Source: Oligoflexia bacterium (GTDB lineage: Bacteria; Bdellovibrionota; UBA1018). Taken from it: a DNA stretch of 28,947 nucleotides. The notes beneath the pieces were generated by a model. That model saw only the letters and a program-made list of their open reading frames with translations, was not told the origin of the DNA and made no database searches. Of this stretch, positions 6,070 to 7,130 are shown in pieces (position 1 is the stretch's first letter; every line of letters begins with the position of its first letter). Where the stretch lies: contig CAIYTD010000139.1 of the NCBI GenBank assembly GCA_903928955.1, positions 1-28,947 on the forward strand, in the 5' to 3' direction. A program made the translations under genes and the position numbers.

Positions 6070-6969
6070 ATGGAAAAAAATCAAAACTTGGAGAATCAAG
6101 AGATTCAAAGAGCTGCCAAAATTATCACCATTGCGAATCAGAAAGGAGGAGTAGGTAAAACAACAACAACTATGAATTTAGGAGTAGCGCTAACTCGACT
6201 TAATAAAAGAGTGCTATTGATAGATGGCGATCCTCAAGCAAACTTAACCAGCTATCTCGGAATTACGCCTGGAGAACATCCTTATGAATCTGTTCATACG
6301 CTAGATGAAATTTATTTATCAAAGCGCCCACTAGACGCGGAAGGCCGTCTCTTTTTTATTACAAAATCCGCGTCAGGGGTGGACCTTATAGCGGCGGATA
6401 AAGCTTTGTCAGGCGTCGAATATTACCTATTTACCCGCGCCGATCGCGAAGTTGTTCTAGCTCGGTTCCTAGAAGCCTTAAAACAGGATTATGACCTCAT
6501 ACTCATTGACACACCACCTAGCCTCAACCTACTCACTTTAAATGCTCTCTGCGCAAGTGATTATGTTCTGATCCCGGTCCAACCTGAATTTTTTAGCTTA
6601 GAAGGAATCGTAAAAATTAAAGAATCCATTGAAGATGTCCGCCTTCGATGGAATCCCAACCTTTCCATTATTGGAGTCTTACCTACTCAGCTTTCGAGTC
6701 GCAGAAAGCTGACTCACGAAGTCATTCGAGCGCTTCAAATGGAACTTGGAGAAAAACTTTTTGAAACAAAAATTCACGATAACGCAGCTGTAGCCGAAAG
6801 TTCAGGTCACGCTCAGTCTGTCATAGAATACGATCGCACCTCACGTGGTGCTCAAGATTATATGGCTGCAGCAAAAGAGCTTATTTTGAGGTGTTCTGGA
6901 AAATTTGTCAGTCAATATTCCGAAACCACTCTATCGTCTCAGGAGACCCCATTATGTCAAAACATTTAG
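6070..6969 (+). CDS. ParA/Soj-family ATPase with no adjacent parB (orphan)
   Basis: Deviant Walker A NQKGGVGKTTT, DGDPQAN, Walker B IDTPPSL, IPVQPEFFSLEG and YDRTSRGAQDY. Start placed at ATG 6070, with a purine-rich AAGAAAGG RBS candidate upstream. No ParB-family gene in the window. Confidence 0.92.
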   Translation: MEKNQNLENQEIQRAAKIITIANQKGGVGKTTTTMNLGVALTRLNKRVLLIDGDPQANLTSYLGITPGEHPYESVHTLDEIYLSKRPLDAEGRLFFITKSASGVDLIAADKALSGVEYYLFTRADREVVLARFLEALKQDYDLILIDTPPSLNLLTLNALCASDYVLIPVQPEFFSLEGIVKIKESIEDVRLRWNPNLSIIGVLPTQLSSRRKLTHEVIRALQMELGEKLFETKIHDNAAVAESSGHAQSVIEYDRTSRGAQDYMAAAKELILRCSGKFVSQYSETTLSSQETPLCQNI

Positions 6970-7130
6970 GACGCAATCCCTTTCAAAAGAAAACAGCGAA
7001 AATTATTTTTGCTCCGGAACAAAAGAAATCAGCCCTTATCGATTACTTACTGATTGATTTACCTGCAAAGTCATACATGCTTGCCCTGCAGTGGACGCTT
7101 TTAGTGAAAGACACCTTCAGAAAAAAATAA
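6954..7130 (+). CDS. 58-aa hypothetical protein overlapping the ParA stop (putative ParA partner)
   Basis: AGGAG at 6941-6945, 8 nt before ATG 6954. Overlaps the ParA 3' end by 16 nt. Sequence MSKHLGRNPFQKKTAKIIFAPEQKKSALIDYLLIDLPAKSYMLALQWTLLVKDTFRKK. It fills what would otherwise be a gap before the convergent GS stop. Confidence 0.6.
   Translation: MSKHLGRNPFQKKTAKIIFAPEQKKSALIDYLLIDLPAKSYMLALQWTLLVKDTFRKK

Follow-up and report, generated by a model that had tools for sequence, protein, structure and literature searches.

ParA/MinD ATPases are generally acted on by partner proteins through a positively charged, disordered N-terminus. In ParB the ParA-binding motif consists of hydrophobic residues around a central Arg or Lys. 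In M. xanthus, ParB R13 is contacted by ParA residues Y81, E82, D110 and E117, and R238 of the same ParA is its non-specific DNA-binding arginine, an R238E variant being devoid of such binding (PMC12462528). In McdB, a basic N-terminal peptide is both required and sufficient for binding to the ATPase; behind it come a disordered stretch and then a helical C-terminal part. ParG/omega-type partners need a tail arginine for ATPase stimulation. For many ParA/MinD ATPases the label orphan reflects partner proteins so varied that they escape recognition. Two such orphans of B. bacteriovorus, ParA1 (Bd1326) and ParA2 (Bd2331), share transcripts with small genes whose function is unknown, and deletion of ParA2 alters gliding reversals (PMC7186360).

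The window analysed here, a 28,947-nt stretch of contig C139 from a lake-water Bdellovibrionota genome, holds an orphan ParA followed by an overlapping gene for a 58-aa protein, most likely its private, cognate partner. We put at about 60% the probability that parA and the small gene make up a dedicated ParA/partner module, in which the small protein joins an N-terminal ParA-binding peptide to a C-terminal membrane or cargo anchor, both of them predicted.

An orphan ParA diverged from the chromosomal Soj

6070..6969, + strand: parA, orphan ParA/MinD-family ATPase of 299 aa (ATG at 6070, stop TAG at 6967-6969, read from the sequence)
6142..6162, + strand: deviant Walker A motif KGGVGKT, residues 25-31, with signature lysine K25 (from the translation; invariant across the clade alignment)
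6412..6432, + strand: clade signature G-V-E-Y-Y-L-F, residues 115-121, where Soj has G-A-E-I-E-L-V (8RAY and clade alignments)
6772..6810, + strand: clade signature I-H-D-N-A-A-V-A-E-S-S-G-H, residues 235-247, where Soj has V-P-R-N-V-R-L-S-E-x-P-S-F (8RAY and clade alignments)

We adopted the ATG at 6070 as the parA start; a TTG at 6010 is the alternative. The product matched the Pfam families AAA_31 (E=5.6e-53) and CbiA (E=8.7e-27), and its closest solved structures were ParA/Soj 8RAY and 1WCV (E ~1e-45). It has the KGGxGK[ST] motif, signature lysine and Walker A'/B aspartates of the ParA/MinD superfamily, and retains the D52-G-D54-P-Q-A-N58 motif and IDTPP (translation and clade alignment). 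Against the NCBIfam model ParA_partition (NF041546) it scored 122.3 bits, under the curated cut-off of 180. C-terminal tails in its clade are short, variable and non-amphipathic, with no helix of the MinD membrane-targeting type.

That this ParA is an orphan, with no parB beside it, was borne out by a profile search of the genome's contigs. No ParB_N domain was found on C139; there were three matches elsewhere, on contigs C194, C170 and C361, and the ParB genes on C194 and C170 each lie beside a ParA of their own. The pair on C194 is a separate Soj-ParB operon, whose ParB begins MAQKTVLGKGLASLL (M-AQKTV-LGKGLASLL). The ParA of the window shares 39% identity with that Soj, and 39–44% with Soj-type ParAs.

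By alignment to 8RAY and to the clade, the four sites that contact ParB R13 in M. xanthus read Y81 to D79, E82 to E80, D110 to A112 and E117 to Y119, so that one of the four (E82) is kept. Of the non-specific DNA-binding arginine sites compared, which were that of R238 and the DxR arginine, the R238 equivalent (position 240) is alanine throughout the clade. R211, aligned to R190 of the 8RAY chain, is kept, with R212 and K213 adjoining. The genome's own Soj retains the equivalents of Y81 (in VYHAL), E117 (in GAEIELV) and R238. We conclude that the partner-contact surface of this ParA has diverged from that of chromosomal Soj/ParA, and that it is not the chromosomal Soj of its genome, an outcome in favour of the original prediction.

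A small gene overlapping the parA stop

6941..6945, + strand: Shine-Dalgarno sequence AGGAG, 8 nt 5' of the small-ORF ATG (from the sequence)
6954..7130, + strand: small partner ORF of 58 aa, net charge +8, MSKHLGRNPFQKK...SYMLALQWTLLVKDTFRKK (ATG at 6954, stop TAA at 7128-7130)

The small ORF starts within the 3' end of parA in another frame, overlapping it by 16 nt (6954-6969), and has its own AGGAG, as first described; purine-rich stretches resembling a Shine-Dalgarno sequence precede the orthologous small ORFs at most loci. The protein matched no Pfam or NCBIfam family at E<=0.1, the ParB/Srx CTPase domain and HTH included, and 15 members of its family gave nothing beyond scattered noise at E<=1. 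Public names for the family are "hypothetical protein". The ESM Atlas yielded no usable match, and a literature search for a GRNPF-type motif returned OCR noise and unrelated papers, none relevant.

Used as the sole query in a word-index search, the 58-aa protein recovered only itself. Single-sequence tblastn in relatives gave E values of 0.06–3, for matches that turned out to be genuine when set against the positions of ParA loci. We looked downstream of orthologous ParAs, counting ORFs that start with ΦG(R/K/V)(N/D)P(F/L). Of the 30 loci located via ParA alone, 28 have an ORF starting [R/K/H]-Φ-G-R-N-P-F-x-K-K at -41 to +24 nt relative to the ParA stop; overall the figure is 36/38. The ORF overlaps ParA in 30 of the 36, including 19 overlaps by a 4-nt ATGA. 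Two ParA orthologues of ~50% identity have no GRNPF-type ORF downstream. About 77 control loci with ordinary Soj-type ParAs, from other phyla, lacked the motif. The genome's six-frame translation holds 44 occurrences of GRNP, and the small ORF alone starts with ΦGRNPF. This single ORF start, the recurrence at 36 of 38 ParA stops and the blank controls together place the motif ORF beyond chance. Where synonymous sites were unsaturated, dN/dS was 0.15–0.31, indicating purifying selection, with the termini conserved and the linker rich in indels. The small ORF is thus a real, conserved gene, as had been proposed, and its most conserved part is the LGRNP motif for which the search downstream of ParA was suggested.

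ParA and the small ORF are tightly coupled. Within the phylum, HMM matches to the small protein all fell at ParA-orthologue loci, except for one acyltransferase N-terminus. The frequent stop-start overlap would imply coupled translation and stoichiometric co-production. As far as we searched, the module is confined to Bdellovibrionota. A profile search of 1.84 billion proteins returned 166 clusters (50% identity) at E<=1e-3, the best 150 of which are of 58–190 aa. A search with GRNPFDKK confirmed four loci, all labelled Bdellovibrionota, Oligoflexia or Bacteriovoracaceae. In the phylum's two largest other sampled families neither a ParA orthologue (E<=1e-55) nor a GRNPF protein was found (0/53 and 0/100 genomes). 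DNA of the locus is present in public sequencing runs from lake and freshwater metagenomes; no RNA run was among the public runs listed for it.

Peptide, linker and tail helix

6963..6992, + strand: N-terminal motif H-L-G-R-N-P-F-Q-K-K, residues 4-13, with family consensus [R/K/H]-[L/M/I/V]-G-R-N-P-[F/L]-x-K-K; the N-terminal peptide MSKHLGRNPFQKKTAKIIFA includes R7, N8, P9 and F10
6993..7031, + strand: basic linker, residues 14-26; ~15–130 residues in relatives, indel-rich and poorly conserved
7032..7124, + strand: C-terminal helix, residues 27-57 (AlphaFold2), with consensus W-L-L-V-D-L-P-A-E-S-Y-V-L-G-L-K-T-x-L-L-A-K

GRNP is invariant across 150 of 150 representative clusters (the best 150 of 166), at residues ~5-9, and the following F is at 96%. 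Among the loci examined by genome, the Arg is replaced by Lys in one and by Val in another, both of one genus; ParA residues 79, 80 and 119 showed no clear covariation with these changes in that genus. The first 25 residues of the small protein carry a net charge of +6, and the net charge of family members has a median of +6 and a maximum of +28. AlphaFold2 modelled the basic residues 1-26 with low confidence, as disordered (pLDDT ~65–72 in the linker), and residues 27-57 as a single helix (pLDDT 91–98), with no strand. A basic, disordered N-terminus (+6, pLDDT ~65) encoded next to the ATPase gene (36/38 loci) is the mark of the ParA/MinD partner class. A centromere-binding, ParG-like nature of the small ORF was also considered and ruled out, there being no repeats and no ribbon-helix-helix fold in the AlphaFold2 model.

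The N-terminus had been likened to the LG(R/K)G peptide of ParB. The likeness holds for the conserved N-terminal LGR and ends there: N-P-F follows the Arg, not ParB's helix-forming G-L-x-A-L-L. The proline in GRNPF makes impossible the short helix in which ParB's LG(R/K)GLxALL lies on ParA, so the docking mode would differ.

The tail is harder to assign. As the criterion for a membrane span we took a segment of ~19 residues near the C-terminus with a Kyte-Doolittle mean of at least 1.6. The 19-residue maximum was 1.22 for the small protein, with a family median of 1.40 and values >=1.6 in 32/150; for the long form described below, genuine lipoprotein signal segments ranged from 1.2 to 2.1 by the same measure. 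Conserved columns of the helix include D/E (71%), P (73%), A (77%), L (72%) and K/R (92%). Given this borderline hydropathy and the conserved D/E, P and K/R, the tail helix may serve contacts with other proteins or self-association instead of spanning the membrane.

Eight proteins of 273–277 aa have the same N-terminal peptide, with the W-L-L-V-D-L-P-A...G-L-K tail replaced by a lipobox/membrane segment, a coiled coil and a CpoB/YbgF-like TPR region. In the one genome with context, G305, the long-form gene directly follows a ParA orthologue, with a 19-nt overlap. Relatives that lack the extension are ordinary lipoproteins. In the long form the tail is gone, whereas the peptide and, in G305, the position next to ParA are retained; the N-terminal peptide is therefore the element travelling with ParA. 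The proposed layout of an activation peptide plus a hydrophobic anchor is compatible with the AlphaFold2 model and with the peptide-then-lipobox/membrane order of the long form. The fusion of peptide and CpoB/YbgF-like protein belongs to an Oligoflexia lineage.

Neighbouring genes

2781..4487, - strand: pilB, type IV pilus assembly ATPase (Pfam T2SSE, E=8e-140), divergent from parA and 1.6 kb from it
4536-5534, - strand: ribF, between pilB and parA
5504-5950, - strand: CxxCxxCC/YkgJ-like gene, between pilB and parA
7137..9413, - strand: glnN, type III glutamine synthetase, convergent, its stop 6 nt from that of the small ORF

The ribF and YkgJ-like pair is also found upstream of parA in two relatives and the YkgJ-like gene in three more, and glnN is a neighbour common to many relatives. 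Polar pilus placement had been suggested as the cargo from the divergent pilus motor genes. That proximity recurs, pilB lying 1–5 kb from the module in many genera of one family; elsewhere, however, it is 12–150 kb away or on other contigs. Of 75 genomes in the family, 73 encode PilB and about half have the ParA/small-ORF module. Gene order within this one family thus hints weakly at the type IV pilus machine as cargo. A cell-envelope or Tol-Pal/CpoB-like function is a comparably faint possibility, suggested by the long-form fusion.

Proposed mechanism and alternative readings

In the favoured reading, of a dedicated ParA/partner module, the ATPase would be a ParA-family protein, predicted to be catalytically intact, with a remodelled partner-contact surface. 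The disordered basic peptide [+]-Φ-G-R-N-P-F-x-K-K would bind the ATP-bound ParA dimer and stimulate ATP hydrolysis, as the N-termini of ParB, McdB, PomX and ParG suggest. A flexible basic linker would come next, and the C-terminal helix would hold the peptide at the inner membrane, at a complex embedded in that membrane or at other copies of the small protein. A bolder version is tentative at best: anchored in the membrane, the GRNPF protein would act in trans to activate or tether a ParA with remodelled DNA and ParB contacts, and the pair would position a machine that spans the envelope with respect to nucleoid or pole, with the type IV pilus motor and a CpoB/Tol-Pal-like factor as candidates.

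The roles of the two ends could be exchanged, with the C-terminal helix (Y-V-L-G-L-K-T-x-L-L) binding and activating ParA and the GRNPF peptide binding the DNA minor groove or the cargo. The tail does resemble a ParB-type ParA-binding helix, its K/R (92%) having L/V/I on either side and G or A before it, and its helicity is predicted with high confidence by AlphaFold2; GRNP is also present in HU/IHF-like ORFs of the genome and recalls the AT-hook GRP core and the GRNP of the HU/IHF arm, and the small proteins are strongly basic. We consider this exchange unlikely, because the long form dispenses with the tail while keeping the peptide, characterised ParA/MinD partners act via their N-termini, and the GRNPF motif has no R-G-R-P core of an AT-hook.

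Also unlikely is a reading in which parA is merely co-transcribed with a gene for a conserved small protein, of membrane or basic type, and the ATPase works with another protein or none. The overlap of stop and start at 30/36 loci, the near-exclusive occurrence of HMM matches at ParA-orthologue loci and an invariant basic N-terminal peptide that fits the general partner signature all speak against it. On its side, the interaction of ParA with the small protein is itself one that we infer, two ParA orthologues have no small ORF, and the orphan ParAs of B. bacteriovorus are likewise co-transcribed with neighbours of unproven role. A spare chromosome or plasmid partition ATPase that uses the genome's ParB, with the small ORF irrelevant or no gene, would account for the identity to Soj-type ParAs and the best solved relatives being chromosomal ParA/Soj, yet is largely refuted and very improbable, as the ParBs on C194 and C170 (two of the three ParB_N matches) adjoin their own ParAs, the clade differs at R13-contact sites and at the R238 equivalent, the small ORF is under purifying selection and centromere-like iterated repeats do not flank the locus.

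The dedicated module pairs one orphan ATPase clade with an unannotated candidate partner family that has a sharp signature, GRNP across the best 150 of 166 clusters. The genome encodes at least three (candidate) ParA partner peptides, LGKGLASLL, LRSGLDALL and LGRNPFQKK, so that the encoding of partner specificity can be compared within it. The small size of the pair suits direct peptide biochemistry and structure work. If the activator/tether reading is true, ParA positioning would here be reduced to a minimum of two parts, with contact to matrix or cargo delegated entirely to a peptide of ~60 residues; should the cargo be the pilus or a factor of the envelope or of division, the pair would account for how that machine is placed in these bacteria.

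Comparison with known systems

The pair is most readily set beside ParABS. Like residues 1-20 of M. xanthus ParB (PMC12462528), the small protein has a short unstructured peptide within ~15 residues of its N-terminus, made of an aliphatic residue, G and a central R/K. The likeness extends to the same genome, where ParB M-AQKTV-LGKGLASLL can be compared with MSKH-LGRNPFQKK, and in both the gene is directly downstream of parA. By contrast, the small protein has no ParB/Srx CTPase domain or HTH, and there is no parS. With N-P-F in place of ParB's G-L-x-A-L-L after the Arg, no amphipathic helix is possible in the peptide, and the ParA has lost R13-contact residues (Y81 to D, E117 to Y, D110 to A).

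In McdA/McdB, too, the ATPase is of ParA type and its small adaptor is not a ParB. The two systems share no sequence homology, no carboxysome genes lie nearby, and the partner here is smaller, with a hydrophobic tail where McdB has a soluble coiled coil; McdA binds the nucleoid, whereas the ParA of the window is without the key R238 equivalent. TP228 ParF/ParG and pSM19035 delta/omega also have partners of <100 aa with a flexible basic N-terminal tail. ParG and omega are ribbon-helix-helix proteins with iterated centromere repeats, whereas here AlphaFold2 predicts one helix and no iterated centromere-like repeats were found in 5400-7500.

Among ParA/MinD systems with a membrane matrix, MinD/MinE would be similar in forming its active complex on the membrane, if the tail helix of the partner is membrane-bound. 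MinD bears its own C-terminal membrane-targeting helix, in contrast to this ParA, for which any hydrophobic element is on the partner. The orphan ParA1 and ParA2 of B. bacteriovorus come from the same phylum and are co-transcribed with small genes; they differ in that the ParA/GRNPF type described here was absent from the two other families sampled (0/53 and 0/100 genomes), among which we assume Bdellovibrio to be.

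An orphan ParA and its probable small partner gene

Domain hits (Pfam AAA_31, E=5.6e-53; CbiA, E=8.7e-27) place the window ParA among the ParA/MinD ATPases, and its nearest solved structures are ParA/Soj 8RAY and 1WCV (E about 1e-45). It scored 122 bits with the NCBIfam model ParA_partition, under the 180-bit cut-off.

Features around the window ParA
4536-5534, minus strand: ribF, TTG start as listed; upstream of parA, divergent
5504-5950, minus strand: CxxCxxCC/YkgJ-like ORF, TTG start as listed; upstream of parA, divergent
Upstream of parA, divergent: pilB-pilT-pilC
6070-6969, plus strand: window ParA, 299-aa ORF from ATG 6070 to TAG 6967-6969; alternative start TTG 6010
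6892-6966, plus strand: window ParA C-terminal tail, residues 275-299 (25 residues, CSGKFVSQYSETTLSSQETPLCQNI)
6941-6945, plus strand: AGGAG, 8 nt 5' of the small ORF's ATG
6954-7130, plus strand: small ORF, 58 aa, ATG 6954 to TAA 7128-7130, in a different frame from ParA
Stop at 7137-7139, convergent, downstream of the small ORF: type III glutamine synthetase (glnN)

Read from the sequence, the two ORFs overlap by 16 nt. The original prediction had described ParA, the overlapping 58-aa ORF, its AGGAG ribosome-binding site and the divergent pilus genes, accurately in every detail. The Shine-Dalgarno (SD) sequence and start of the small ORF fall inside the region coding the ParA tail. This tail is not conserved; orthologues stop 3–30 residues past a conserved ...ELLxRC, with unrelated tails. 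The YkgJ-like ORF overlaps the listed ribF start by 31 nt (5504-5534), and both starts are uncertain. The stops of the small ORF and glnN are 6 nt apart, and no terminator-like hairpin was found between them (7128-7139).

Conservation of the small ORF

Used as sole query, the 58-aa sequence matched only itself. Searching relatives by tblastn gave weak matches (E=0.06–3), several of which sat exactly 3' of ParA orthologues that a separate search had found. Downstream ORFs were scored by reading three frames beyond each ParA stop. All 15 usable orthologous loci of the first ParA search, with ParA identity down to 55%, had an ORF starting M-x(2-12)-[L/M/I/V]-G-R-N-P-[F/L]; none was found beside the two most distant ParAs (about 50% identity). 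With a phylum-wide ParA search included, the motif ORF was present in 28 of 30 loci found via ParA alone and in 36 of 38 genomes overall, so this check, proposed with the original prediction, came out in its favour. Ordinary Soj-type ParAs of other phyla served as controls, and none of about 77 such loci had the motif. The six-frame translation of the window's genome contains 44 copies of GRNP, but only the window's copy has ΦGRNPF at an ORF start; several of the remaining copies are the HU/IHF arm motif.

The motif ORF starts between −41 and +24 nt relative to the ParA stop, overlapping ParA in 30 of 36 loci (19 via a 4-nt ATGA), and most loci have a purine-rich SD-like stretch 5' of it. Variants are LGKNPF or LGVNPF in one genus and LGRDPF in one genome. 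In genus g35 the usual Arg is replaced by Val in LGVNPF (L192, G082) and by Lys in LGKNPF (L193, G078); there the partner is longer, at 152–160 aa, and both ParAs have GVEYFLF in place of GVEYYLF.

Pairwise dN/dS of the small ORF was 0.15–0.31 for pairs with unsaturated synonymous sites. In distant pairs synonymous sites were saturated, both termini were conserved, and indels gathered in the middle. The sequence evidence shows that the small ORF is a genuine conserved gene tied to the window ParA clade, and that the two genes are co-inherited and translationally coupled.

A new protein family

Searching 1.84 billion representative proteins with a 30-member profile (A2) gave 166 matching clusters at E<=1e-3, 19 of them at E<=1e-10, which further supports conservation of the small ORF. 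All clusters listed had lengths of 58–190 aa. Among the 150 clusters listed, G-R-N-P was invariant and followed by F in 96%; the preceding residue was L/M/I/V, and the one before that R/K/H in 96%. K stood two and three positions past the motif F in 61% and 48%, the motif began at residue 5–9 in most, and medians were 83 aa in length and +6 in net charge. Over the last 22 residues the consensus is W-L-L-V-D-L-P-A-E-S-Y-V-L-G-L-K-T-x-L-L-A-K; among its columns D/E is conserved at 71%, P at 73%, A at 77%, L at 72% and K/R at 92%.

Pfam and NCBIfam searches gave no match for the window's 58-aa protein and nothing above noise for 15 family members. Source names are "hypothetical protein", and no member bears a precomputed Pfam domain. 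The family is new and unannotated; a literature search for the motif found no paper mentioning it.

Profile A1 matched 38 of 116 genomes of the window's order, including 30 of 74 of its family. In a 401-genome phylum sample 25 matched, all but one within the order, with 0/53 and 0/100 in the two largest other families sampled. The ParA clade (E<=1e-55; 38 of 401 genomes) was distributed in the same way. These counts cover the window's order and the 401-genome phylum sample.

AlphaFold2, run with a 30-sequence alignment, left residues 1–26 without secondary structure (pLDDT about 65–72) and gave a single helix for residues 27–57 (pLDDT 91–98). The partner is thus modelled with a disordered, basic N-terminus and a helical C-terminus. 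The helix is moderately hydrophobic, with conserved acidic, proline and basic positions; its peak 19-residue Kyte-Doolittle mean was 1.22 in the window protein (family median 1.40; >=1.6 in 32 of 150), while the long form described below has genuine lipoprotein signal segments that score 1.2–2.1. It could span the membrane, lie in the membrane plane, mediate self-association or dock on another protein.

The peptide on other proteins

A genome from another family of the phylum (G305, NCBI name Oligoflexia) has a ParA orthologue, 48% identical and with the clade signature, and a 276-aa gene that overlaps its end by 19 nt; adjacency of this long form to ParA was examined in this one genome. Its product runs from MHDKKLGRNPFNKE through about 50 residues to a hydrophobic segment with a terminal lipobox (FLVGC), a coiled coil and TPR repeats. 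The whole architecture, including L/M-G-(R/K)-N-P-(F/L), is kept in seven homologues (44–59% identity), one carrying the JGI name TolA-binding protein; two remoter relatives have an ordinary lipoprotein start without the extension. The C-terminal part is nearest YbgF/CpoB, under curated cut-offs, and the NCBIfam model for CpoB-like predatory vesicle lipoproteins also matches it. On the same strand, 3' of the gene, are a LysM protein, dprA and topA (L178, G305:C1, 9993-14479). The long form shows the peptide preceding a segment predicted to enter the membrane, so the peptide end would have to be cytoplasmic. It also shows the N-terminal peptide as an apparently portable module that travels with the window's ParA clade, the remainder of the protein being replaceable.

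A PlsC-type acyltransferase (L090, G040:C45, 1477-2502, plus strand; Pfam Acyltransferase, E=1.4e-13) has the N-terminus TRLGRNPFDPKP. No orthologue of the window ParA was found in that genome (88% complete). The acyltransferase may be a second client of the peptide, or a chance match, since by our own estimate the six-frame translation of one genome should yield about one or two six-residue matches.

Divergence from Soj and unlikely service by ParB

The window's assembly (2.8 Mb, 400 contigs, 95.5% complete) has ParB_N domains on contigs C194, C170 and C361 and none on the window's contig (C139), confirming that no parB lies beside the window ParA. C194 carries a Soj-type ParA with 39% identity to the window ParA, followed by a ParB with N-terminus MAQKTVLGKGLASLL; C170 has a second, plasmid-like ParA-ParB pair. 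The closest paralogue (C123; L002, G000:C123, 1086-2250, minus strand) is 251 aa long, 44% identical, and followed by a 115-aa protein starting MSKKNALRSGLDALL. That protein is not a ParB yet has a ParB-like N-terminal peptide, so the pair is probably another small-partner partition module. The genome thus has three or more distinct partner peptides, and the window ParA is a fourth, separate ATPase without ParB. The window DNA was found in lake and freshwater metagenome runs, and the closest among named public contigs come from MAGs with the labels Bdellovibrionota, Oligoflexia or Bacteriovoracaceae.

The M. xanthus ParB N-terminal motif has hydrophobic residues surrounding a central R/K (R13), which contacts ParA Y81, E82, D110 and E117; ParA R238E abolishes non-specific DNA binding (PMC12462528). 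We aligned the window ParA to 8RAY (M. xanthus ParA residues 21–274, D60A), with a chain numbering offset of +19 deduced from A41 = D60A.

Window ParA residues at M. xanthus ParA contact sites
Y81, contacts ParB R13: D79
E82, contacts ParB R13: E80, kept
D110, contacts ParB R13: A112
E117, contacts ParB R13: Y119
R238, non-specific DNA binding: A240
R235, neighbouring arginine in the PRNVR motif: D237

The replacements are clade-wide (signatures T-L-D-E-I-Y-L-S-K-R, G-V-E-Y-Y-L-F and I-H-D-N-A-A-V-A-E-S-S-G-H), whereas the genome's own Soj retains VYHAL, GAEIELV and PRNVRL. Another arginine conserved among ParA-like ATPases (PMC7229837) appears, by our own mapping, to be retained as R211 (8RAY chain R190), adjoined by R212 and K213. 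By its motifs the window ParA is catalytically intact, and by alignment it has diverged at ParB- and DNA-contact sites; service by ParB is therefore unlikely. These residues and the separate Soj-ParB pair on C194 set it apart from chromosomal Soj, an outcome in favour of the original prediction.

Candidate cargoes

Polar pilus placement had been suggested as a possible cargo. In the window's family (f1), pilB lies 1.1–4.8 kb from parA on the same contig, mostly divergently, in 15 genomes of at least 11 genera, at 12 kb in two genomes and at 150 kb in one; these counts are biased, the remaining genomes having the two genes on different short contigs and being uninformative. Beyond the family, parA and pilB stand 12 kb (G115) or 42 kb (G305) apart or fall on separate contigs. 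Within it, 73 of 75 genomes have PilB but only about half have the module, so pili do not need the module. The pilus link is family-level synteny and no more.

The pair of ribF and the YkgJ-like gene precedes parA both in the window and in G006 and G020; in G075, G076 and G074 the YkgJ-like gene is found upstream. Frequent neighbours of the module are convergent glnN (3' of it in at least G115 and G084) and an upstream sigma-54 activator; neither suggested a function to us. In several genera (L089, L171, L074, L076 and L088; G115, G086, G089, G084 and G114) a gene on parA's own strand stops shortly before parA with the ending LRK(M/I)RKYGINP, probably the C-terminus of an NtrC-like sigma-54-dependent activator; the module would then lie between this gene and glnN. 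The long form's link to a CpoB/YbgF-like periplasmic protein suggests, not strongly, envelope or division functions.

Proposed mechanism

By analogy with the ParA family, the GRNPF peptide would dock on the ATP-bound ParA dimer and stimulate hydrolysis. Private specificity could come from the remodelled D79 / Y118-Y119 surface. The C-terminal helix may hold the peptide to the membrane, to a membrane complex or within an oligomer, which would localise ParA turnover at the anchor. Because of its proline, the GRNPF peptide cannot take ParB's helical binding mode; this point above all separates the pair from known systems, and the greatest uncertainty lies here as well. Taken as a whole the original interpretation is partly supported, every computable prediction having been borne out. 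Its stripped-down adaptor agrees with the predicted disordered, basic N-terminus and C-terminal helix.
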